Source: a virus (lineage: Duplodnaviria; Heunggongvirae; Uroviricota; Caudoviricetes). Taken from it: a DNA stretch of 10,133 nt. Where the stretch lies: IMG/VR virus record IMGVR_UViG_2695420701_000015; one strand, 5' to 3'. Below the pieces are notes generated by a model. The model did no database searches and was not told where the DNA came from. It worked only from the letters and a program-made list of their open reading frames with translations. The translations under genes were made by a program, and so were the position numbers. Each line of letters begins with the position of its first letter. The first letter of the stretch is position 1. Below, piece by piece: positions 36 through 10,133 of this stretch.

Positions 36-587
36 ATGGCGATACTTGGATATTGCAGGGTGAGTACAGATGACCAATCCATCACTAACCAGCAAATGCA
101 AATTGAAGAGGCAGGGTACAACATTGCTAAATGGTTCACTGATGAAGCTGTCAGTGGTTCTGTCAAAGCTTCTTTAAGAAACGGTTTCAGCAGACTATTA
201 GCTTATGCACGAGAAGGTGACACCGTAGTTGTGGTAGCTGTAGACCGTCTTGGACGTGACACAATTGATGTGTTATCAACGGTTAAAGCGCTACAGGCTA
301 AAGGTGTGACAGTTATCAGCCTTAGAGAAGGGTTTGACTTATCAAGCGCTATGGGTGAAGCAATGTTAGGCATTATGTCAACGTTGGCACAGCTTGAAAG
401 AAGCTTGATAGCAGAGCGTAGAAAGGCTGGTATTGAACGTGCTAAAGCTGAAGGGGTACATATGGGAAGACCTGTAAAAGCTTCTTCAGAGGCTGTACAG
501 ATGCTTATTTCACAAGGTAAAACGAGGTTGCAGATTCAGGAAGAGCTAGGAATCTCTAGAGCAACTTATTACAGACTTGCTAAATAA
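36..587 (+). CDS. Small serine recombinase (resolvase/DNA-invertase family), 183 aa
   Basis: Complete ORF. N-terminus MAILGYCRVSTDDQ carries the catalytic-serine motif of small serine recombinases; VDRLGRD motif; C-terminal HTH-like [13 protein letters not shown]-like AAGGGGA about 6 nt upstream of the ATG. Confidence 0.9.
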   Translation: MAILGYCRVSTDDQSITNQQMQIEEAGYNIAKWFTDEAVSGSVKASLRNGFSRLLAYAREGDTVVVVAVDRLGRDTIDVLSTVKALQAKGVTVISLREGFDLSSAMGEAMLGIMSTLAQLERSLIAERRKAGIERAKAEGVHMGRPVKASSEAVQMLISQGKTRLQIQEELGISRATYYRLAK

Positions 588-776: not shown

Positions 777-1164
777 AGCTTATGCACGAGAAGGTGACAC
801 CGTAGTTGTGGTAGCTGTAGACCGTCTTGGACGTGACACAATTGATGTGTTATCAACGGTTAAAGCGCTACAGGCTAAAGGTGTGACAGTTATCAGCCTT
901 AGAGAAGGGTTTGACTTATCAAGCGCTATGGGTGAAGCAATGTTAGGCATTATGTCAACGTTGGCACAGCTTGAAAGAAGCTTGATAGCAGAGCGTAGAA
1001 AGGCTGGTATTGAACGTGCTAAAGCTGAAGGGGTACATATGGGGAGGCCTGTAAAAGCTTCTTCAGAGGCTGTACAGACGCTTATTTCACAAGGTAAGAC
1101 GAGGTTGCAGATTCAGGAAGAGTTAGGAATCTCTAGAGCAACTTATTACAGACTTGCTAAATAA
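777..1164 (+). pseudogene. 5'-truncated second copy of the serine recombinase gene (C-terminal about 129 codons only)
   Basis: nt 777-1164 align to nt 200-587 with 5 substitutions (4 synonymous, 1 Met->Thr). The catalytic N-terminal domain is absent; ORF-track ORF 808-1164 starts at an internal Met. Confidence 0.8.
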
Positions 1165-1356
1165 GTTACTGAATAGTTACATGGATGTAGCTGATATTTG
1201 GCTTTTTTGCCAAGGGGGTCACATAGCTGGTGTGACGGGTACTTAGCAGCTACAGACATCTGTCAGATATTTTTGAAGATTCGGGGAAGATGAGATTCAA
1301 AGAGGGCTAGTCATTTTTTATAAAAATTTTCAGACTCTGAAAAGTTACTGTACAGA
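777..1356 (+). repeat. Copy B of the recombinase-3'/downstream module (tandem, head-to-tail with copy A)
   Basis: Junction at about 774-777, where ...TTTTATAAAAAATT joins AGCTTATGCACGAG (gene position about 200). Downstream part 1165-1356 matches 3491-3684 almost exactly. Confidence 0.85.
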
Positions 1357-1508
1357 ATATATACAGATATCTTTAAAGTATCTGTAAAAACTTTTAAGAT
1401 AAAAGATAGATATCCCAGAAAGGATATCCGTTTAGAAAACCTGTTAAGTATCTCTTAAAAGAGAGTAAACCTTGTCAAGAGTGATTGCAATAAAAATTTT
1501 TATTTCTT

Positions 1509-2171
1509 ATGTCAATTGAGCATATTTTAATCGGGAAGCATCATGGGGGTTCTGATTACTGGAGAACTCCATTTTTGTTATTTAAGAACTTACACCGTGA
1601 ATTTATTTTCAGTCTAGATGGTGCTGCAACTGAGCATGACACGCTGTTACCACGATTCACCGATGATATAAGCCGTCAATCATGGGTTAGTGAAAAGGTC
1701 TTCTGTAACCCGCCGTACAGCGATATTCCGTCGTTCCTCTTAAAAGCGTCTGAAGCGGATTTAGTAGCTTTCCTGATACCGCATAGAGCCAACACCAGCT
1801 ACTGGCTTAGGCACATTTACAGCAATAACCACTGTCATGAAATCCGTATTCTTCATCGTGCAGTTAAATACCTTCCACCAGCAGGGCATAACAGGCTTAC
1901 TATTAGGTCACCGTTTCCAAGTGCAGTCGTTGTTTTTAAAAAAGAACCACGTAAGCATGAAATTACACAGATGGTTTGCTGTGCTGATACATTGCTACCG
2001 TTAACCATCATTAACCGTGGTGGACTAAGAGGAAGACCCACCATTTACCCACCTGAGACGCTCGACAGCTTCATAAAACTATACAGGCAAGGAAAACCCA
2101 TTAAGTACATTGCAGATGCTCTCAGAATGCCTCTGAGCACGTCATACAGGATTGCTCAAAGGTTGAGCTAA
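1509..2171 (+). CDS. DNA N6-adenine methyltransferase, phage Dam-like family, with C-terminal HTH-like extension (220 aa)
   Basis: Motifs DYWRTP, LDGAA and FCNPPYSD (NPPY catalytic motif of amino-methyltransferases) in the order typical of the phage Dam family. C-terminal about 45 aa (KPIKYIADALRMPLSTSYRIAQRL) resembles a resolvase-type HTH. No adjacent restriction endonuclease gene is visible. Confidence 0.75.
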   Translation: MSIEHILIGKHHGGSDYWRTPFLLFKNLHREFIFSLDGAATEHDTLLPRFTDDISRQSWVSEKVFCNPPYSDIPSFLLKASEADLVAFLIPHRANTSYWLRHIYSNNHCHEIRILHRAVKYLPPAGHNRLTIRSPFPSAVVVFKKEPRKHEITQMVCCADTLLPLTIINRGGLRGRPTIYPPETLDSFIKLYRQGKPIKYIADALRMPLSTSYRIAQRLS

Positions 2172-2275
2172 AATTCTCATAAATATGGTCATTTACAAGA
2201 CAGGTGATTCAGATGTTAAGAAGTATCCCCGTGAACAATAAATGACCAATCAGTAATCATTCTGTGAAATAATTG

Positions 2276-2304
2276 TTGCAATTTATAATCACATCTGTTA
2301 TAGT
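2276..2304 (+). promoter_or_regulatory. Candidate sigma70 promoter (TTGCAA-17 bp-TATAGT)
   Basis: Hexamers and 17-bp spacing read directly. It lies about 230 bp upstream of the 2535 ORF, so the assignment is tentative. Confidence 0.3.
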
Positions 2305-2534
2305 TTCTATATGGGCTGATAAAAAAGTTCATGTCTTGAAGTGGTAACACTTGGGGAGGTGTCAGATGGTTGGCGTATATTAACCTCTCATTCAGGGTAT
2401 ACCTCAGCGTTTTAATCATCGTACTGTTTCAGGCATGGACTTCTTTATCAGTCCATCAATCCCCCAGATATTTTAATCACACAGGCTAATCGGTTTTATC
2501 CGGTTGGCCTTTTCACGTATGAGGTAATTTATGA

Positions 2535-2924
2535 ATGTCTAAATATAACCCAAATCAGTTTTATAAATTTGATGTGCGAATCTCTCAACTTTCAGAAGAA
2601 ATTAACGCAGCAGCAAGATTGATTTATATGGTCATGGTCCATAGCTGTGACTTCTATGAAGAGAAATACAAATCATATTCACCAAGTATTGACCATCTCG
2701 CTTATATGGCTGGTGTATCAAAGAGAACAGCAATCAGAGCCATTGAGACACTTGAGAAACACGGTTTAATTCAGGTGCAAAAGAATCAGGGGCGTCAAAG
2801 CACTTATCGTGTATTCACACTGGATGATAAGCCGGAATTACTTGTAAGACCTACATCACAGGAAGTTGCAGCCTCAGTAAGACAAAATGACACCACTACC
2901 AGTGACAAAATGTCATGGGGGTAG
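2535..2924 (+). CDS. Winged-helix DNA-binding protein, possible replication-initiator or regulator N-terminal part (129 aa ORF)
   Basis: Segment LAYMAGVSKRTAIRAIETLEKHGLIQV is HTH/winged-helix-like. GAGG lies 10 nt upstream of the ATG. The ORF stops at a TAG (2922-2924) between two 15-bp repeats, and the coding signal continues in another frame. Confidence 0.5.
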   Translation: MSKYNPNQFYKFDVRISQLSEEINAAARLIYMVMVHSCDFYEEKYKSYSPSIDHLAYMAGVSKRTAIRAIETLEKHGLIQVQKNQGRQSTYRVFTLDDKPELLVRPTSQEVAASVRQNDTTTSDKMSWG

Positions 2925-3138
2925 TGACAAAATGTCACCCGTGTTAGAGTTAGATAAGTTATTAGATAAAACATTAGATAATAATATTACAGATAAGAAT
3001 AAAGAGACTGGACTTAATGATGATATTAAAGAAGATGACTTTCTTTCTTTGGATGAATTAAATGATTTTCTCTCTATGAATGAATCTGACCTTGAAGTAA
3101 GCTCTAAAAAGGGTGATGCTGCCAACTTACTGATTTAG
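2887..3138 (+). pseudogene. Acidic C-terminal continuation of the rep-like gene in a shifted frame, 3'-truncated by IS1
   Basis: ORF 2887-3138 re-reads the second 15-bp repeat as SDKMS, the same peptide ORF 2535-2924 reads from the first repeat. Its last 9 codons (GDAANLLI-stop) are encoded by the IS1 left inverted repeat, so the native 3' end is missing. Confidence 0.35.
2901..2937 (+). repeat. Two exact 15-bp direct repeats AGTGACAAAATGTCA, 22-bp period, each containing the palindrome TGACA-N3-TGTCA
   Basis: Read directly: copies at 2901-2915 and 2923-2937. The 7-bp spacers differ (TGGGGGT versus CCCGTGT). Confidence 0.9.
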
Positions 3139-3450
3139 TGTATGATGGTGTTTTTGAGGTGCTCCAGTGGCTTCTGTTTCTATCAGCTGTCCCTCCTGTT
3201 CAGCTACTGACGGGGTGGTGCGTAACGGCAAAAGCACTGCCGGACATCAGCGCTATCTCTGCTCTCACTGCCGTAAAACATGGCAACTGCACGCATTATG
3301 GGCGTTGGCCTCAACACGATTTTACGTCACTTAAAAAACTCAGGCCGCAGTCGGTAACCTCGCGCATACAGCCGGGCAGTGACGTCATCGTCTGCGCGGA
3401 AATGGACGAACAGTGGGGCTATGTCGGGGCTAAATCGCGCCAGCGCTGGC
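3112..3450. mobile_element. IS1 remnant: intact left terminal inverted repeat, insA with internal deletion, start of insB; right part absent
   Basis: GGTGATGCTGCCAACTTACTGAT at 3112-3134 matches the IS1 left inverted repeat as I recall it. The following sequence encodes the InsA N-terminus ([41 protein letters not shown]). About 85 bp appear to be missing after 3291 relative to canonical IS1 (from memory). IS1-like sequence stops at 3450. The segment is visibly more GC-rich than its flanks. Confidence 0.8.
3167..3334 (+). pseudogene. insA: insA remnant (GTG start), frameshifted by the internal deletion
   Basis: Translation from GTG at 3167 gives the InsA N-terminus and then diverges after ...KTWQL into [14 protein letters not shown]-stop. 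The InsA C-terminal peptide [21 protein letters not shown] is encoded in a different frame. Confidence 0.7.
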
Positions 3451-3451
3451 A

Positions 3452-3684
3452 TAGGAATCTCTAGAGCAACTTATTACAGACTTGCTAAATAAGTTACTGA
3501 ATAGTTACATGGATGTAGCTGATATTTGGCTTTTTTGCCAAGGGGGTCACATAGCTGGTGTGACGGGTACTTAGCAGCTACAGACATCTGTCAGATATTT
3601 TTGAAGATTCGGGGAAGATGAGATTCAAAGAGGGCTAGTCATTTTTTATAAAAATTTTCAGATTCTGAAAAGTTACTGTACAGA
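3452..3684 (+). repeat. Copy C of the module: last about 13 codons of the recombinase gene plus downstream region
   Basis: TAGGAATCTCTAGAGCAACTTATTACAGACTTGCTAAATAA and the following about 190 bp match 549-587 and 1165-1356. It begins abruptly inside IS1-derived sequence. Confidence 0.85.
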
Positions 3685-4630
3685 TTTTGCACAATCCTAC
3701 CAAACCTCATAGTTGATTCGATTAGAAGCTAATCTCATAGAAAGCTCTGTAGCGAGTTTTAACCCCATTTTTAGGGGTAACCTATAGGGATGTACTAACC
3801 ACCTTAAAATAAAGGGGTAAAATCGCTTAGAATGCGTTACAGAGCGTCTGAGAAGCCATATTCACAGATTTTACTAAAACCTCAGACTTCTAAGTAGTCT
3901 TTTAACAGGAGGGGTTCCCCTATGGTCACATATCCCCTCTCTTTCCACTAAGTAAGCCTTAGCAGCACCTAAGCAACAATTGACTAACAGATTCGGTAGA
4001 GTCTATCTCATAGGTCAACTTCATAAACTCAGAGCTAAGTTACCTTGAAAGATTCTACCAAGAACTACACAGGTGTTATTTAGTCTGACTGTGAAGGGAT
4101 ATTTAACGGGAGAAGAGATACGATATAACCCGAAGGGAGAGTATCATCTTAACAATTATCTTAAGAATAAAACTGAAAAACTCTTAACAGATAACCACCT
4201 AGAAAGAAGGGAACGATAAGACCAGAGGTAGTGACCTGTTAAACAGGCTGTTTCAAAGTCTCTTAAAAGTCTGTTAAGTAAGGTCATGTGAACAATCTTA
4301 CCATTTTGTCAATGCTTTTGTCTTTGACCTAAATCAATAAAATGTATCGTTTGATATGCTTTTAAACAAAATAGCTAAAAAATCTTTTTTTAGAGGGGCG
4401 CTTCGCTTGGGGTCACTATGAATGATTTTTCTCTCGCTAAGAGAGCGCTTACAGAGGTCTTTCAAATCTCAATAGCCAGCCGAGGAACACAGGAAACCGA
4501 GGGAAGAAAAACTATTGTGATTACCTTGAACAAGGTCTGTAAAGGTCGTTTAAGAGGTCGGTTAAGAAAGGAGCTTCCCTCTCTGGGGTTATCGCTCTTC
4601 TCCCGATTAGTGGGGCGGTTAAGGGGGCTT

Positions 4631-4812
4631 GAAGTTATCTGTGAAGGTACTGGACAGTCTTATATATTGGGTGATTACAACTCGTTGAAAAATAAGCATT
4701 TTTAGAAGTTACTGTTAAGGTTGCAGAGTTGTCTGTGAAGAGACTTGTCAGTTCTCTATATATGGCTAATTACAACTTATTGAAAAATAAGAACTTTTAG
4801 AAATTACTGTCA
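4631..4812. repeat. Two imperfect tandem direct repeats, about 94-bp period
   Basis: TCTGTGAAG...TTGAAAAATAAG(C/A)A(T/C)TTTTAGAA(G/A)TTACTGT occurs twice, starting at 4638 and 4732, roughly 80 percent identical by eye. Confidence 0.8.
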
Positions 4813-4945
4813 GAGAGGTGAATGCTTGATAGACACAGCTTTCCGGTTCTGTCAAGCTATTTTTTAATAGATAGCACAAAATGCTAAAGACACCCCTGTA
4901 CCATAGACTTCTATCTGTCATCTCGTGCAGGGGTTTTGAAGGAGT

Positions 4946-5122
4946 TTAACGGGGGTCTGTGTGGTCGTTATCCTTAAGGTCAAGCGTCCATGTACGACCG
5001 AACAGTTTAAAGACAACAAGCACTCTGACGAGGACGTAGCGAAGTAGCAGGCCTGCAATCAGCCCAATACCTCCACCAGTCCATACATCAGGTGACCCCA
5101 GCTCAGGAGGGAGATTTACCAT
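4946..5122 (-). CDS. Candidate small membrane protein, 58 aa (MVNLPPELGSPDVWTGGGIGLIAGLLLRYVLVRVLVVFKLFGRTWTLDLKDNDHTDPR)
   Basis: Internal Met of ORF-track ORF 4946-5278 (-). AAGGA RBS 6 nt upstream on the minus strand. One predicted transmembrane helix with a charged C-terminus. The palindromic element 5137-5234 lies immediately upstream. Confidence 0.35.
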   Translation of the reverse strand: MVNLPPELGSPDVWTGGGIGLIAGLLLRYVLVRVLVVFKLFGRTWTLDLKDNDHTDPR

Positions 5123-5136
5123 TAGTTTTCCTTGTA

Positions 5137-5234
5137 AGACGCTCTCAATCGCATTCTGACACAAAAAGTACCTGACCTTATGAGTTGACCTGAAGAGGTC
5201 GTTTAACTCGTTACAGGGCGATTGAAGAGGTCTG
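5137..5234. repeat. Palindromic repeated element, copy 1 (terminal inverted repeats AGACGCTCTCAATCGC / GCGATTGAAGAGGTCTG)
   Basis: Both terminal arms are shared with copy 2 at 6765-6886; the central part differs. It sits immediately upstream of the RBS of the minus-strand small ORF. Confidence 0.8.
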
Positions 5235-5336
5235 TGTGCAATGCAAAATATGCGACCAAATACATAGCCACGCCTCATATTTTACTCTCCCCATAAACCC
5301 ATTATACCACAGATGTTACGAAAATGTTAAAAATAC

Positions 5337-5365
5337 TTGACATTAGTCTTTGAAAATGCTAATAT
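5337..5365 (+). promoter_or_regulatory. Candidate sigma70 promoter TTGACA-17 bp-TAATAT
   Basis: Consensus -35 and near-consensus -10 with 17-bp spacing, about 50 nt upstream of the 5417 ATG. The -10 is followed by TGTATATAT, as at the 7320 promoter. Confidence 0.55.
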
Positions 5366-5416
5366 TGTATATATAGGTTAACAGAATAATAACATCTTCT
5401 GAGAGTCAGAACATGA

Positions 5417-5974
5417 ATGCAGTATTCAGAATTTAGAGCGATGCTTCAGGCATCAAGAGAACGCAACAAGCACAACTCCTACGCTTACACAAACAACCCC
5501 ACCAGCTACGAAGTCCCAACCTTTAGCAAATCCGAACGTAAGAACATTGAAGCGGTCATTCGTAGCATTACGCCACGAGACAGATTTATGCCAGTACGCA
5601 AAACAACAAAGAATACTATTAAAAATTATCTGGCTAACTTTGACAGTTACGAGCAGTTACCAAGCAAGCTTGATGATGTTTTTATTGGGTTCTGTAGAAG
5701 TGAAGGCCACCCGAAATACAACAAAAAACTATTTTATCTGCTAAAGAATCTTGACGAAATTAACGCATCCACCGTGACAAATCATCTTCAGCGACAGGCA
5801 ACCAGACTTAGTTACGAATTACCAAGCGATAAATATTGCGCTTTGCTTGCTGTGATGTGCGCGAAATTAATTGGCATTGTTGAACATCATATTGCCGTTG
5901 GGAATATTGAGCCAATGGAAAACGAGCAACCAGATTTCGAGTTTGACCCCTATTTAGTTACAGAGGATTTTTAA
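5417..5974 (+). CDS. Hypothetical protein, 185 aa, acidic C-terminus
   Basis: Long ORF downstream of the candidate promoter; first gene of a run of tightly abutting ORFs. No family recognised. Confidence 0.7.
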   Translation: MQYSEFRAMLQASRERNKHNSYAYTNNPTSYEVPTFSKSERKNIEAVIRSITPRDRFMPVRKTTKNTIKNYLANFDSYEQLPSKLDDVFIGFCRSEGHPKYNKKLFYLLKNLDEINASTVTNHLQRQATRLSYELPSDKYCALLAVMCAKLIGIVEHHIAVGNIEPMENEQPDFEFDPYLVTEDF

Positions 5975-6253
5975 ATGAATAAACACACATTAACCAGAGT
6001 TACAAAGACAGCCTTTGATGAACTGAACCGAATCAAAAACATTACAGGTCTGCCACACTCAGCAGTGATGAAGCTTGCAATTAACCGTGATATTAACGAA
6101 CAGGATTTGCTTAATAGTCGCTTAGAGGCTGCAAGACACCATATCAGGATTAAGCAAGATGACCTTGATAGTCTGAAATCCTTAAATGCTTTTGGACTGG
6201 ATTTAGCAAGGTTACTAAGTATCAAAATTCACAAACTGTCTCAGGAGGTCTGA
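5975..6253 (+). CDS. Hypothetical small protein, 92 aa
   Basis: ATG immediately follows the upstream stop (TAAATG); GAGGA lies upstream. No family recognised. Confidence 0.65.
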   Translation: MNKHTLTRVTKTAFDELNRIKNITGLPHSAVMKLAINRDINEQDLLNSRLEAARHHIRIKQDDLDSLKSLNAFGLDLARLLSIKIHKLSQEV

Positions 6254-6255
6254 TT

Positions 6256-6528
6256 ATGAAGCAATGGCGAGATGATATTAAACGGTTCTTTGCAACTTAC
6301 TTCATGATTAATTATGAGACAGGAATGCTTGAATGGATTGATGGTGGAGAGGTTAAGACAAGAGATGATGCTTACGGTAATCCAATGATTCGTTATGGCA
6401 CTCGTGATTATTATCTGAAGTATGTCATCTGGTTTTTGCATCATGAAGTTCAGGCAACTAAAAAGATTATCTTCAGGGATGGTAATAAAAGAAATTGCCA
6501 CCCAAACAATTTACTCCTGGAGATTTAA
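6256..6528 (+). CDS. Small protein with degenerate HNH_3-like motif, 90 aa
   Basis: AGGAGG RBS 7 nt upstream. C-terminal half (YLKYVIWFLHH...IIFRDGNKRNCHPNNLLL) resembles the HNH_3/NUMOD4-type pattern (HRxVW...IDHIDGNxxNNxxxNLRL), but the DH of the catalytic motif is replaced by FR. Confidence 0.6.
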   Translation: MKQWRDDIKRFFATYFMINYETGMLEWIDGGEVKTRDDAYGNPMIRYGTRDYYLKYVIWFLHHEVQATKKIIFRDGNKRNCHPNNLLLEI

Positions 6529-6728: not shown

Positions 6729-6764
6729 TCCGAGACTTTAAGAGAAATTAGAAAAACAGCTTAT

Positions 6765-6886
6765 CAGACGCTCTCAATCGCATTCTAACGCAAAAAACTA
6801 TCTTATTTTAGGGTGGGTAATACCACTGTACAGGCTACCCCTGAAAAAGACTGTTTAGCTCGTTACAGAGCGATTGAGGAGGTCTG
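6765..6886. repeat. Palindromic repeated element, copy 2 (CAGACGCTCTCAATCGC ... GCGATTGAGGAGGTCTG)
   Basis: Same terminal arms as copy 1 and an internal palindromic core. It ends about 20 nt before the ATG of the 6907 gene on the plus strand. Confidence 0.8.
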
Positions 6887-6906: not shown

Positions 6907-7230
6907 ATGAACGAATATGAATTACAGATTTTCATTGATAGCGACACTGCTATGATGGTGCAGGCTTTCGCTGATTCCGGTGTATCAATTGACCTTGATA
7001 AATTACTAAAGCTAATGGCTGAAAACTCAGAAGAAATTGAAGACTTTATTCAGGAAATTGAAACTGGTGAACCGCGTTTTATGTTTCCTGTTACCGACTC
7101 AAACATGAAGCGTCTTATTATCGAAGAAACGAACAAATACAGCGTTAGCCCTGAAAAATATCTCAAGGCGGCTATAGCAATTTTGTATAGCGATAATATT
7201 CTGGTGACGGATTCGAAGGTGGTGCATTAA
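6907..7230 (+). CDS. Hypothetical acidic small protein, 107 aa (ATG at 6907; the ORF track start at 6874 is a TTG inside the repeat element)
   Basis: AAGGAG RBS 9 nt upstream of ATG 6907. Asp/Glu-rich. Confidence 0.7.
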   Translation: MNEYELQIFIDSDTAMMVQAFADSGVSIDLDKLLKLMAENSEEIEDFIQEIETGEPRFMFPVTDSNMKRLIIEETNKYSVSPEKYLKAAIAILYSDNILVTDSKVVH

Positions 7231-7744: not shown

Positions 7745-8455
7745 ATGACAAACGATTTATATATTAACGGTAAAAAGGTTGATAGCTTCGGAGACTGGTC
7801 ACCACAGGGTGAACATCCGCTACATACTATTCAGCGTCAAGAGCATGACAAGCGCATTGAGCTTGAGCAAGAGCTAAAGATGTCACCAAAGGTAATTTCC
7901 TTTGTGTCTCCTGAGCCTCAAGAAATGCCTGATATCTGCAAAACTGAAGCACTATTTGAGCTTGAGCGTGAATATTACCCAGCTTTAAAATCACAGCGTC
8001 TTAGACTTGATGTCGCTTACGATGCTGTTAAGAACTTCGAAGAAACCTCGAAACCTTCAGAATATGATATTGCTTACGAGATTAAGTCAAACCCGTTTAT
8101 CTATTATGAAGGAAACTTTAATGATGGTTTTGGTACAGCGATTGAAGACGTTCCTAAAGTTCTTCAAAGTATCCCTGAAGGGTTCCGGTTAATTGATGTC
8201 AGACAAGCATTAAGGGGTTCTGGTCAATTTATTCTGATGACTGATAAAACAGATGAAGAGATTCTTCAGTTAGCTGAAGCTAATTTGACTAAGCATTATT
8301 CCGGTAAACTGGATAAGTTAAAGCAAAAGCTTAAAAAAGAACTTGATACTATGAAAGAACTTGTTAGTGAATATGAGTCGCAGAAGAAGATTGCTTTGAT
8401 GGCTGATATTGAGCAGTTAACGAAGATTTCTCAGAAGTATAGCAAGGCTGTTTGA
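7745..8455 (+). CDS. Hypothetical protein, 236 aa, helical and charged C-terminal third
   Basis: AGAGG RBS 8 nt upstream. No family recognised. C-terminus rich in K/E/L, suggesting coiled coil. Confidence 0.75.
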   Translation: MTNDLYINGKKVDSFGDWSPQGEHPLHTIQRQEHDKRIELEQELKMSPKVISFVSPEPQEMPDICKTEALFELEREYYPALKSQRLRLDVAYDAVKNFEETSKPSEYDIAYEIKSNPFIYYEGNFNDGFGTAIEDVPKVLQSIPEGFRLIDVRQALRGSGQFILMTDKTDEEILQLAEANLTKHYSGKLDKLKQKLKKELDTMKELVSEYESQKKIALMADIEQLTKISQKYSKAV

Positions 8456-8477
8456 TTATGAATTAAAGAGGTGATTA

Positions 8478-8687
8478 ATGTTTGAAGAACGTTTAGAGAC
8501 TATTCGGTCTGTTTGTGAAAACTTAAAGTTACAAACTAAGCCAGCCTTAAGAATTAAAAACAAACGTCAAGTTATCACCTCACACAAACCAAAAACACGC
8601 AAGATTCCAAAGTGGTGTATTGACCGTATTCCTTCTGATGCTCAAATCATAGGTGAAACGGAATTACATTATCTTGTCCGACATTAA
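8478..8687 (+). CDS. Hypothetical basic small protein, 69 aa
   Basis: AAGAGG upstream of the ATG; Lys/Arg-rich; followed by a terminator. Confidence 0.6.
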   Translation: MFEERLETIRSVCENLKLQTKPALRIKNKRQVITSHKPKTRKIPKWCIDRIPSDAQIIGETELHYLVRH

Positions 8688-8710
8688 AAAAGAATTGGTT
8701 GGGTAAATAC

Positions 8711-8753
8711 GGGGAGAGATTATCGAGTGACATCGGTAGCTCTCCCTTTTTTT
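8711..8753 (+). terminator. Rho-independent terminator (GGGGAGAG ... CTCTCCC followed by T7)
   Basis: GC-rich inverted repeat (loop about 21 nt) immediately followed by TTTTTTT, 24 nt after the stop of the 8478-8687 ORF. Confidence 0.65.
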
Positions 8754-8843
8754 GTATGTGTGCTACGTGAAATCTGTAAAGCTAATACCCACACTGAAAA
8801 ATAGAATTTACGTACAACACGCTTAAAGAGGTGAAAAATATGA

Positions 8844-10121
8844 ATGGCACAATTTAAAGTTGATGATTTTCTGATTGAGTTAAGTTTTAACTCTCAGAAA
8901 GTTTTAAAAGGCTTGGAAAAAGCCGAGAAACAAACGATGCAGGTAGCATCACGAATTGAGAAGCGATTGAATAAGTCGTTTAGAGTTAATCCTACGCCTT
9001 TAAATGATTCTCTCAAACTAATGGAAAGAAATGTCGATAAAACTGTTTCCAAGATTGAGCAGCGTCTTAAAAACACTAGAGCGTTTAAGATTAAAACTGA
9101 AATTGAGGATACTTTAAAGCCACTTAGACAACCAAGACAGCCACGAATTAGCGGAAGCAGAGCAATCACAGCAGCTTACTCAGCGAATATGAGCAAGCTT
9201 CGTGACTTTAATCCTATGCTTGAGAAGTATTTTAAAAGCCAGTATTACAGCTTAAGCAGTAAATCCAAGACACTTGGAAACGAAACTTTTAATCGTGAGT
9301 TAGCAAAGTTAAATCAGTCTCTTCGTGAAACACTTTCTAAGTTTAACAAGACCACCAGCAAAAATAATCACAGTGAAAATGCTTCAAATAGTCTGGATGT
9401 ATTAGCTACGAGTGCAATCAAAGCAGGTACAGCCATTTATAGTTTTCAGACAGCCTTAGAAGCTTACAGGCGGATTATGGAGGTTGGTCTGAAAAAAGAA
9501 GCATCACAACGAGCGGCACAATTCGTTTTAGGTGATGAAGGTGCTAAACGAGCTACAGAATTTGTTAAGAATCTTGCTGATAGTAGTGGTGTAGACCAGA
9601 TTGAAACATTAAGCAGTTTTGCTAAGTTTTCCGCTGGTGCTGGTGATATGAATGCAGACCAGAAAGAATCCTTATTTTCTAATGTGATTGGTACATCCAG
9701 ATTAATGGGGCTAAGCACCGATGAAATTAACGGGATTTTAAAAGCTTTCGAGCAGATGGCATCTAAAGGAAAGATTCAGGCTGAAGAGCTACGCGGTCAA
9801 TTAGGTGACAGAATGGCAGGTGCTTTTCAGTTATTTGCCAGAAGTCTTGGGATGACTACGGAAGAATTAGACAAGGCCATGAAAGACGGTAAGGTTCTTT
9901 CTAAAGATGTTCTTCCTAAAGTATCCGCTGAAATGGGAAGGATGATTGATAAAGCTGGTGGATGGGAAAAGATTATTAACTCTACTCAGACGCAGTTAGG
10001 CCGCTTAAGTAATTCATGGAATAATAATCTGGCCTTAATGTTCGATGGTTCACAGGAAGGTTTAACAGACTTTACAAGGTCACTGACTAATTTACTTAAT
10101 TCACTAAATAGCTGCGCTTAA
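8844..10121 (+). CDS. Tape-measure-domain protein, 425 aa
   Basis: AAAGAGGTG RBS 10 nt upstream. Residues about 290-380 (GILKAFEQMASKGKIQAEELRGQLGDRMAGAFQLFARSLGMTTEELDKAMKDGKVLSKDVLPKVSAEMGR) match the conserved phage tail tape-measure N-terminal-type domain pattern as I recall it. Predicted helical N-terminal half. Complete ORF with TAA at 10119-10121. Confidence 0.8.
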   Translation: MAQFKVDDFLIELSFNSQKVLKGLEKAEKQTMQVASRIEKRLNKSFRVNPTPLNDSLKLMERNVDKTVSKIEQRLKNTRAFKIKTEIEDTLKPLRQPRQPRISGSRAITAAYSANMSKLRDFNPMLEKYFKSQYYSLSSKSKTLGNETFNRELAKLNQSLRETLSKFNKTTSKNNHSENASNSLDVLATSAIKAGTAIYSFQTALEAYRRIMEVGLKKEASQRAAQFVLGDEGAKRATEFVKNLADSSGVDQIETLSSFAKFSAGAGDMNADQKESLFSNVIGTSRLMGLSTDEINGILKAFEQMASKGKIQAEELRGQLGDRMAGAFQLFARSLGMTTEELDKAMKDGKVLSKDVLPKVSAEMGRMIDKAGGWEKIINSTQTQLGRLSNSWNNNLALMFDGSQEGLTDFTRSLTNLLNSLNSCA

Positions 10122-10133
10122 TACCGCTACACT

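Follow-up and report, generated by a model that had tools for sequence, protein, structure and literature searches.

An IS-truncated tape measure gene of Shigella sonnei in what is probably a decayed copy of a satellite-like enterobacterial island

The PLE satellites of Vibrio cholerae are the described systems closest to the locus reported here. These parasites of the virulent myophage ICP1 encode their own tape measure protein (TMP), chaperone and hub protein, and give rise to chimeric, shorter tails; compared with the proteins of ICP1, the PLE TMP shares 20% identity and is 95 aa shorter, and BhuB shares 41% identity (Nature 2026, PMC12987554). In Escherichia coli and its relatives, Barth et al. 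(2023, PMC10055350) describe integrative elements with a putative TMP and a baseplate component, and list 224 elements. Other mobile elements carry genes targeting the tail assembly of an infecting phage, such as Tai, PLE11 Rta and Tab. Finally, on the phage side, TMP gp17 and tube initiator gp18 have been placed in the tail hub of phage Bas63 (PDB 9NDY; PMC12609058).

Here, we analyzed a stretch of 10,133 nucleotides (hereafter the window), whose host is Shigella sonnei and which ends with an ORF encoding a tape measure domain. This ORF is a truncated allele, and we estimate at roughly 60% the probability that it lies in a decayed copy of an island whose intact form is satellite-like and parasitizes or interferes with Felix O1-like phages. 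The features of the window are collected in Table 1.

Table 1. Features of the window, with strand and supporting evidence.
Feature	Position	Strand	Evidence or remark
Small serine recombinase (resolvase/invertase), island left end	36-587	+	PF00239
Partial tandem duplicate of the small serine recombinase	808-1164	+	Duplication shown
p185	5417-5974	+	Synteny across E. coli, E. albertii and IMG/VR loci
p92	5975-6253	+	Synteny across E. coli, E. albertii and IMG/VR loci
90-aa HNH-type endonuclease	6256-6528	+	PF13392 on the 95-aa allele; RefSeq name of the 90-aa allele
66/77-aa ORF	6495/6528-6728	+	Synteny across E. coli, E. albertii and IMG/VR loci
p107	6907-7230	+	Synteny across E. coli, E. albertii and IMG/VR loci
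p236	7745-8455	+	Syntenic with TMP in every related locus; RefSeq name 'transposase' unsupported
p69	8478-8687	+	Syntenic with TMP in every related locus
Intrinsic terminator closing the p236-p69 transcription unit	8711-8754	+	RNA fold; hairpin 8711-8747 followed by a U-run
Conserved regulatory element	8762-8826	+	Upstream-region alignment and motif search
Ribosome-binding site AGAGGTG	8827-8833	+	Read from sequence; 10 nt 5' of the ATG at 8844
Native part of the TMP gene (codons 1-421 of the ancestral 688)	8844-10106	+	tblastn, DNA alignment
TMP_3 (PF20155) core	9528-10031	+	Pfam, residues 229-396
IS target (CTA of ancestral CTAG)	10103-10106		Comparison with the ECONIH4 allele
Terminal 27 nt of an IS630-family element	10107-10133	-	IS match on contig L004; the contig ends inside the IS

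A tape measure gene truncated by an IS630-family element

The preliminary description of the window reported a 425-aa ORF with a tape measure domain, and both parts of this statement hold. The ORF starts with ATG and extends from 8844 to 10121 on the plus strand, and its TMP_3 domain scores 75.7 bits (E=5e-21), well above the curated Pfam cutoff of 41; the PHROG profile phrog_4036 ('tail length tape measure protein') matches with E=2e-72. The alignment covers only positions 250-470 of the 749 positions of this profile, and intact orthologues extend to position 748 and keep the ...SSxYPEE terminus. The N-terminal tape measure model TIGR02675 (tape_meas_nterm) is recognized on an intact allele (E=1e-16). 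An identical 425-aa protein is predicted on at least 24 independent contigs, which shows that the ORF results neither from chance nor from a single assembly error. It belongs to a cluster of 667 members, nearly all of the named members inspected being S. sonnei and a few partial ones carrying the label E. coli, and its source label reads 'tape measure domain [Shigella sonnei]'.

The shortness of the protein is not a native property, as comparison with intact alleles shows. By tblastn, the native part aligns with an intact E. coli allele over 421 of 421 residues with 96% amino acid identity, and at the DNA level homology stops at nucleotide 10105/10106, where the intact allele continues from NSL into GGQSKNLG and on to 688 aa. 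At this point the ECONIH4 allele reads TTCACTAGGTGG and the window reads TTCACTA followed by AATAGC; the uninterrupted allele has the CTAG-containing sequence CACTAGGT, of which the window keeps CACTA before the IS begins. Elements of the IS630 family preferentially target CTAG/TA. Codons 422-425 (NSCA) and the TAA stop (10119-10121) are IS sequence. Contig L004 extends further into the IS and encodes a 289-aa partial transposase on its minus strand (9308-10177) with a Pfam DDE_3 domain, which belongs to the IS630 family according to NCBIfam NF033545 (235.9 bits, cutoff 100). The other contigs listed end within about 80 nt of the stop codon. An assembly artefact is ruled out by the identity of the junction in all ten contigs examined together with the continuation of L004 into the IS. 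The ORF is therefore a truncated allele composed of 421 native codons (61% of 688) fused to an IS630-derived end, and the protein is short because an IS630-family element inserted at CTAG after codon 421.

That the gene instead encodes a naturally short, stand-alone TMP-domain protein with a function unrelated to tails, as had been suggested, is extremely improbable. The intact reading frame, the ribosome-binding site, the conserved element upstream and the distance from other tail genes would all suit such a protein, but the IS origin of its last four codons and stop already contradicts it at the junction, and the 425-aa form is almost confined to S. sonnei by its named members, whereas relatives elsewhere have 679-725 aa. 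Furthermore, intact alleles conserve the N-terminus, the core and the C-terminal hub-docking residues (...LLSSSYPEE) of Felix O1-type TMPs, which makes a non-tail use of the domain unlikely.

The truncated allele retains the N-terminus and the TMP_3 core. Because its native part ends at residue 421 of 688, without both hydrophobic segments and without the C-terminal residues that anchor the protein to the hub, the fragment is predicted to be incapable of serving as a tail-length ruler. All contigs stop inside the IS630 copy, and TMP sequence reappears at about codon 555, on S. sonnei contig L018, which begins with an IS3-family end and continues with TMP codons ~555-688, the gene of an intact tube initiator (256 aa), a serine recombinase of 506 aa and tonB. 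A second IS junction lies near TMP codon 555. As in other instances of IS-mediated gene decay in Shigella, the gene has been broken by multicopy IS (IS630 family, IS3 family, IS1 remnant) and the contigs break at every IS; the truncation as such is ordinary decay of this kind and nothing unusual.

Gene content, insertion sites and conservation of the island

The intact island is about 11.5 kb long, with a large serine recombinase (PF00239, PF07508, PF13408) at one end; a small serine recombinase like that of the window occupies the matching end in E. coli 47-1826 and TK3887. Two chromosomal sites are used, one between yciI and tonB and the other within yecE, which is cleanly split into two annotated fragments flanking a discrete insertion, and the integrases found at the two sites share only 34% identity. 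The gene order is the same in four E. coli strains (47-1826, ECONIH4, TK3887 and STEC383), E. albertii and 11 IMG/VR loci, and the IMG/VR matches are for the most part prophages predicted in isolate genomes. Since the flanks (yciI, yecE, tonB) are chromosomal, a plasmid or phage replicon is ruled out as the origin of the window; in a megablast comparison with phage and plasmid collections, only the IS1 remnant matched.

The only recognizable virion genes of the island are the TMP gene and, directly 3' of it, a gene for a Dit-like tube initiator, after which comes the integrase. As had been noted from the window, tail chaperone, tube, sheath and capsid families are not represented among its ORFs upstream of the TMP gene, according to Pfam, PHROGs, NCBIfam and PADLOC, and the related loci agree: in the 11 IMG/VR loci nothing within 10 kb matches a capsid, terminase, tube, sheath, hub or chaperone, so that the genes of an autonomous virion are absent, and the annotated E. 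coli copies (47-1826, ECONIH4, TK3887, STEC383) likewise list no capsid, terminase or other tail genes. In a tail module, chaperone genes precede the TMP gene and baseplate or tip genes follow it; neither the window nor its relatives have a chaperone, tube or sheath gene upstream, and downstream the intact copies have only the tube initiator before the integrase. The view of the gene as stand-alone is correct insofar as it lies outside a normal tail module, but not in the strict sense, one tail gene adjoining it downstream in intact copies before the element ends. The alternative suggestion of a compact structural module proved accurate, the ancestral order being TMP, tube initiator and integrase.

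No tail assembly chaperone was found among the island proteins with PHROGs at E<=5 or by tblastn against a whole Felixounavirus genome. Scans with Pfam, PHROGs, NCBIfam and PADLOC recognized in the island neither a chaperone nor any protein for initiating replication, for packaging or for regulation. The 10 island proteins submitted to PADLOC gave no match. Neither p236 nor p69 matches a family in Pfam, PHROGs, NCBIfam or PADLOC, and p236 has no match in a sequence search of the PDB; AlphaFold2 models of p236 (pLDDT 60) and p107 (pLDDT 43) were of too low confidence for fold searches. The cargo at the left end varies: the window has a Dam methylase there, and ECONIH4 has a protein with an FRG domain alongside further unnamed genes.

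The terminator reported upstream of the ORF was confirmed by RNA folding (-22.1 kcal/mol, z=-3.69 relative to shuffled sequences); a simple terminator scanner overlooked it because the hairpin does not follow the simple stem-loop pattern sought by the scanner. Between the terminator and the ribosome-binding site lies the conserved regulatory element, with left arm GCTACGTGAAATCT at 8762-8775 and a degenerate right arm, ACGTACAACACGCTTAA, at 8810-8826. In intact islands, the tube-initiator gene is preceded by the same element, there in the form of a nearly perfect inverted repeat of 14 bp whose arms are separated by 27 nt; a motif search did not find it in the phage genome. A promoter scan of positions 8400-10133 detected no sigma-70-like promoter on the plus strand, hence none before the TMP gene, and Rfam gave no match in the window at E<=0.1.

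A megablast probe covering the genes before the TMP gene together with the 5' part of the latter matched 474 of 5426 complete E. coli genomes, which gives an approximate prevalence, and close relatives of the TMP also occur in Salmonella and in other Escherichia species. A scan of a contig collection with the TMP yielded only two E. albertii loci because this collection holds one genome per species. Intact TMP orthologues have 679-725 aa, with lengths of 684-691 aa in over 120 clusters of proteins belonging to E. coli, E. marmotae and Salmonella. Between the native part of the window gene and intact alleles, dN/dS amounts to 0.13-0.18; overall it is 0.13-0.19 for the TMP gene and 0.16 for the tube-initiator gene.

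These data bear on whether the island is an inert prophage remnant, in which the TMP and tube initiator would be left over from a temperate myophage, all other genes having been deleted, and would have no present function. Such a history would fit the use of yecE, a documented prophage integration site, the repeated IS hits on the island (those of S. sonnei and the IS3 copies of STEC383 and 47-1826) and the E. albertii copy truncated against wrbA. We nevertheless consider it quite unlikely: the same compact gene set occurs at two chromosomal sites with two different integrases, no longer version with additional tail or head genes exists among about 20 loci, and selection does not appear relaxed, with dN/dS below 0.2 and a TMP length conserved over the clusters mentioned above. 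Moreover, the closest relatives among phages are the Felix O1-like ones, a virulent group, and no integrase is listed in the genome annotation of Felixounavirus tootiki.

Relation to Felix O1-like phages and to known satellites

The TMP and tube initiator of the island are homologous and syntenic to gp17 and gp18 of Felix O1-like myophages (Ounavirinae), which would make these phages the helper lineage of a putative satellite. In the PDB, the tube initiator matches 9ndy_A (E=4e-104) and the TMP matches 9ndy_F (E=8e-71), both chains of Felixounavirus Bas63, in which the last 25 residues of the TMP touch the hub and spike (PDB 9NDY). The tube initiator aligns over its full length and shares 66-82% identity with the product of the gene just 3' of TMP in Ounavirinae, and the island and phage alleles interleave. 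The island TMP shares 29% identity with the phage TMP and is about 55 aa shorter; inside the TMP_3 core, a 183-nt segment (9744-9925) has 80% DNA identity with the TMP gene of tootiki. The setting differs: in the phage, the pair lies between chaperone, tube and sheath genes upstream and hub, spike and wedge genes downstream, whereas in the island it is isolated, with the inverted-repeat element before each gene and the integrase after them.

Outside its genes, the island also has short stretches in common with intergenic DNA that is specific to Felix O1-like phages. This shared non-coding sequence and the lack of a sigma-70-like promoter before the TMP gene are the only, and indirect, hints toward helper dependence.

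From this gene content we infer a satellite function for the intact island, which would parasitize infecting Felix O1-like phages or interfere with them. By docking onto the hub of the helper and nucleating tube assembly, the TMP and tube initiator of the island would give rise to chimeric tails shorter by about 20-65 residues (roughly 3-10 nm). The S. sonnei copy would then be the decayed remnant of such a system and is probably non-functional.

The parallel with PLEs is close in several respects. Both are small chromosomal islands with a large serine recombinase, both are related to a virulent myophage and lack most tail genes, and both carry a TMP that is distantly related to and shorter than its phage counterpart, together with a hub-proximal baseplate protein. 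Unlike PLEs, the island has no recognized tail assembly chaperone, RepA, capsid-remodelling gene or other PLE hallmark, and its second tail gene encodes a tube initiator instead of a hub protein; host and helper lineages are also different, and the island is known from sequence alone. PADLOC and PHROGs gave no PLE-type match for its proteins, and it should not be classed as a PLE. Likewise, the elements of Barth et al. (2023, PMC10055350) are integrative, lack most tail genes, include a subset with a serine recombinase and exchange sequence with virulent myophages. They also have genes for a major capsid protein, for decoration proteins and for an initiator of the RepA_N type, of which the island has no recognizable version; they mostly use tyrosine integrases next to tRNA genes, whereas the island sits in yecE or between yciI and tonB; and they match Stephanstirmvirinae, not Ounavirinae, a separation made on their overall description.

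A different role can be considered for the same two proteins. The island could be a pure anti-phage interference element, its TMP and tube initiator acting as dominant-negative or decoy subunits that poison the assembly of Felix O1-like tails, protecting the population without spreading with a helper. The close resemblance of these subunits to hub-proximal parts of the phage, the variable cargo at the left end and the lack of recognized packaging and replication genes would all agree with this role, and interference with tail assembly is a documented defence on mobile elements. Yet the known blockers (Tai, Rta of PLE11, Tab) are small and unrelated to their targets, whereas the island genes are full-length structural homologues, and the TMP still has all the interfaces that a working, rather than a jamming, subunit would need. 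Horizontal movement of the element is also indicated by its mosaic alleles and by the swapping of integrases, and PADLOC recognizes no defence system; a purely defensive island is therefore unlikely.

Returning to the satellite-like island, we tentatively propose, at somewhat less than even odds, that the intact ancestor represents an undescribed family of enterobacterial satellites (E. coli, Shigella, Salmonella and other Escherichia) that would pirate Felix O1-like tails by means of their own TMP and tube initiator. Such a family would be the counterpart of the PLE-ICP1 pair outside Vibrio, its mosaic alleles might record an arms race, and the S. sonnei copy would have decayed. The literature searched contained no satellite specifically of Felix O1 or Ounavirinae.

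Implications

By itself, the 425-aa ORF is a pseudogene of an ordinary kind, created by an IS, and a warning against taking the ends of draft contigs for the ends of genes. Its intact relatives belong to an island that is conserved, mobile and common, being present in about 7-9% of complete E. coli genomes, and whose two tail proteins are precisely those by which Felix O1-like phages nucleate their tail tube and measure its length. The BASEL collection includes such phages, which are classical tools of Salmonella typing and candidates for therapy. Should their tails be hijacked or blocked by the island, piracy through chimeric tails would extend beyond the PLEs of Vibrio, the island could explain strain-specific resistance to Felixounavirus phages, and E. 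coli would offer a tractable model in which to dissect the mechanism.

Truncation of the Shigella sonnei tape-measure gene

The 425-aa ORF at 8844-10121 (+) is present as first described, and its tape-measure domain was confirmed (Pfam TMP_3, PF20155, residues 229-396, 75.7 bits against a cutoff of 41, E=5e-21). PHROG tape-measure families also match it (phrog_4036, E=2e-72), but the alignment covers only positions 250-470 of the 749 of that profile, and the C-terminal part of the protein was therefore suspected to be missing. The terminator proposed ahead of this tape-measure protein (TMP) gene corresponds to a strong hairpin with a U-run at 8711-8754 (dG -22 kcal/mol, z=-3.7) and, as likewise anticipated, no window ORF upstream matches chaperone, tube, sheath or capsid families.

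The window represents the whole of draft contig CXDJ01000152.1 (GCA_001260415.1), and nearly all contigs bearing the identical 425-aa protein stop a few tens of bases past its stop codon. Contig L004 continues into a minus-strand transposase of the IS630 family (NCBIfam NF033545, 235.9 bits against a cutoff of 100). The alignment of related E. coli loci to the window breaks off at position 10105/10106, where the protein of an intact E. coli allele reads ...LTNLLNSL/GGQSKNLGEHF... and extends to 688 aa, whereas the window protein reads ...LTNLLNSL/NSCA and stops. Comparison of the junction DNA of the ECONIH4 allele (TTCACTAGGTGG) with that of the window (TTCACTA/AATAGCTGCG) indicates IS insertion into the TA of a CTAG, a known IS630 target; codons 422-425 and the TAA stop of the window ORF are IS sequence. 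An assembly artefact was rejected as the cause of the junction, which is identical in 10/10 contigs examined. Ordinary IS truncation accounts for the finding as written in the preliminary description, and a natively short, non-tail protein using the TMP domain, which it had envisaged, is contradicted by the IS junction at the end of the ORF and is highly improbable.

The source record names the 425-aa protein "tape measure domain [Shigella sonnei]", and its 90% cluster comprises 667 members, those named members that were read being nearly all S. sonnei fragments. The other side of the locus is found on the S. sonnei contig L018, which begins with 27 nt of an IS3-family end and continues with TMP codons ~555-688, the downstream gene in intact form (256 aa), the gene of a 506-aa large serine recombinase and, beyond it, tonB-yciA-yciB-yciC-ompW. 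The same IS3-family end lies next to yciI in contigs L002-L004. With the IS630 junction, that of L018 brings to at least two the IS junctions inside the S. sonnei TMP gene, whose sequence is covered for codons 1-421 (window) and ~555-688 (L018), not 422-554. Among the parts that the window TMP has lost are the C-terminus and both hydrophobic segments (about residues 480-510 and 540-565). Lacking its hub-docking end, the fragment cannot act as a ruler and is best regarded as a pseudogene. The left neighbor of the IS630-truncated copy is a yecE fragment in some S. sonnei strains (L001) and yciI in others (L002-L004), the latter with a truncated resolvase and an IS3-family element in between; these differing flanks suggest a rearrangement between two island sites.

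Organization, spread and conservation of the intact island

Intact alleles reside in a chromosomal island located between yciI and tonB in E. coli 47-1826, and dividing yecE into two annotated fragments in ECONIH4 and TK3887. The island encodes, in order, a small resolvase, a stretch of ~1.9 kb with no clear gene, p185, p92, a slot of variable content (HNH and small ORFs), p107/109, p236, p69, a terminator, the TMP (679-725 aa) and a Dit-like protein (254-262 aa), this order being constant between copies. The idea of a structural module extending downstream thus holds for one tail gene, that of the Dit-like tube initiator, and no further, as a large serine recombinase gene comes next on the opposite strand and ends the island. 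The TK3887 copy measures 11.5 kb and that of ECONIH4, which carries extra cargo including an FRG-domain protein, 16.7 kb. The serine integrases of the two sites share only 34% identity, which points to integrase swapping.

The same synteny occurs in E. albertii and 11 IMG/VR loci, within 10 kb of which no phage hub, tube, sheath, chaperone, capsid or terminase match was found. By megablast counts, a p236+p69+5' TMP probe matches 474/5426 complete E. coli genomes, and a probe made of TMP and its downstream gene yields 354 matches among such genomes. TMP relatives form >120 protein clusters of 684-691 aa from E. coli, E. marmotae and Salmonella. The TMP has pairwise dN/dS values of 0.13-0.19 and the gene downstream of it a value of 0.16 (three sequences, simple Nei-Gojobori); purifying selection acts on both in their intact form. 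These low values speak against an inert prophage remnant, a reading made improbable also by the conserved TMP length, the recurrence of one compact gene set in combination with either of two distinct integrases, and the finding of no longer relative among about 20 loci. Decay of individual copies is seen elsewhere: an IS3 lies within the STEC383 TMP gene, and in E. albertii (L017, NZ_BBMY01000192.1, 2068-4561) a 54%-identical TMP allele runs directly into a 5'-truncated wrbA, a classical prophage integration site. This locus is another decayed island copy.

Features of the window and of a related contig
Feature	Location	Remark
Small serine recombinase gene	36-587	
118-aa recombinase fragment ORF	808-1164	product of the tandem duplication
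Stretch without convincing genes (~1.9 kb)	3465-5416 (also 1308-1448); contig L011, 9576-11468	
Dam-like N6-adenine methyltransferase	1509-2171	in 2.3-kb block
HTH_36 protein	2535-2924	in 2.3-kb block; cut by IS1 remnant
IS1 remnant	3092-3450	in 2.3-kb block
Native TMP codons 1-421	8844-10106 (+)	from alignment to intact alleles

In the window, a 577-bp tandem partial duplication comes after the gene of the small serine recombinase (99% identity between 197-496 and 774-1073). Direct repeats of 242 nt (1124-1365 and 3452-3693, 98% identical) flank a 2.3-kb block (region 1124-3693), as if it had been inserted by recombination at the repeat; its methyltransferase gene also occurs in the TK3887 and STEC383 islands, not in 47-1826. 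Two copies of another repeat, of 48 nt, occupy 4668-4715 and 4763-4810. Immediately upstream of p185, on the opposite strand, a conserved ORF (4946-5278, minus) encodes a hydrophobic 110-aa product, which may be a small membrane protein; it shows 65-100% identity in related islands and lacks annotation in the RefSeq copies examined. The 37-nt motif CTTGTAAGACGCTCTCAATCGCATTCTGACACAAAAA precedes both p185 (5131-5167) and p107 (6760-6796), with 89% identity, and may serve them both as operator or promoter. The product of p236 (7745-8455, 236 aa) is called "transposase" throughout RefSeq, a name that looks unsupported: it has no match in Pfam, NCBIfam, PHROG, PADLOC or PDB, and its AlphaFold2 model, of low confidence, consists mainly of helices, one of them long and C-terminal. 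Between islands, p236 alleles fall into highly divergent classes, with identities from about 23% to about 90%.

Relationship with Felix O1-like phages

The protein encoded downstream of the island TMP is Dit-like (PF21821, E=3e-17; phrog_3721, E=5e-127) and matches the tube initiator protein gp018 of Felixounavirus Bas63 (PDB 9NDY, chain 9ndy_A, E=4e-104), while the TMP matches the tape measure protein gp017 of the same entry (9ndy_F, E=8e-71). In tblastn comparisons, the tube initiator shows 66-70% identity to the product of the gene immediately following the TMP gene in Felix O1-like phages, and the island TMP aligns along its whole length with their TMPs of 742-746 aa at ~29% identity. Tube-initiator alleles share 62-99% identity among islands and up to 82% with the phage protein, so that the alleles of islands and phages are intermingled. 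The hexameric tube initiator of Bas63 serves as adaptor between the threefold hub and the sixfold tube, and the TMP of this phage touches hub and spike through its final 25 residues (PMC12609058). Island TMP alleles vary widely (41-95% identity), and all keep a phage-like N-terminus (MAQFKVD.F..EL.F), the core and a C-terminal LLSSS[YF]PE[ED]. In some alleles (L031, 10001-12172; L027, 2816-4960), the N-terminus is near-identical to that of phage TMPs (MAQFKVDSFIVELGFSE.VIKGLQRVEK), which suggests recombination between island and phage genes. Ahead of its start, the island TMP gene retains ~40 nt that resemble the 3' terminus of the chaperone gene of the phage, a mark of capture of the gene pair from a Felix O1-like phage.

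Several non-coding island stretches of 49-90 nt match intergenic DNA of these phages, including window segments 1391-1448, 3636-3683 and 4193-4242 (83-86% identity). E. coli 47-1826 carries a 90-nt element in which a GTGGNT...ATCCAC hairpin leads into repeated NNACC pentamers. The 102 phage records that this element matches are all named Escherichia, Salmonella, Shigella, Citrobacter or Felixounavirus, "Felix O1-like" being here assigned from names typical of such phages; candidate roles of the element are those of an origin, a packaging signal or a phage-responsive promoter. Since Felix O1-like phages are virulent, and no integrase is listed in the annotation of the tootiki genome, the island is not simply their prophage.

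A putative mode of action

The recognizable virion proteins encoded by the island are exactly the pair that sits on the baseplate hub, starts tube polymerization and sets tube length, and their surfaces expected to touch the hub of the helper are conserved. Each gene has its own conserved upstream element, a 14-bp inverted repeat (GCTACGTGAAATCT, 27 nt, AGATTTCACGTAGC) not found in phage; a promoter scan recognized no sigma-70-like promoter. Infection by a Felix O1-like phage would induce expression of the island TMP and tube initiator, which would replace, or compete with, gp17 and gp18 of the helper and yield chimeric tails shorter by 20-65 residues (roughly 3-10 nm). Pure interference by decoy subunits, without transfer, is consistent with the absence of recognized replication or packaging genes in the island, and seems unlikely, if less so than an inert remnant.

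The satellite-like reading finds a precedent in the PLEs of V. cholerae, which share with the island a large serine recombinase for integration and a link to a virulent myophage. The TMP, chaperone and hub protein that PLEs supply themselves (20%, 20% and 41% identity to those of ICP1) enter chimeric tails 10 nm shorter and are required for transduction (PMC12987554). The likeness of the island to PLEs is proposed for its putative way of working, not for sequence or family membership. Independently, Barth et al. (PMC10055350) described putative E. coli satellites of Justusliebigvirus phages with a TMP and a baseplate component. An incomplete body of literature, short of the element list of Barth et al., was searched and gave no description of such an Ounavirinae-linked island. 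The intact relatives of the window TMP probably constitute an undescribed, testable satellite-like system.
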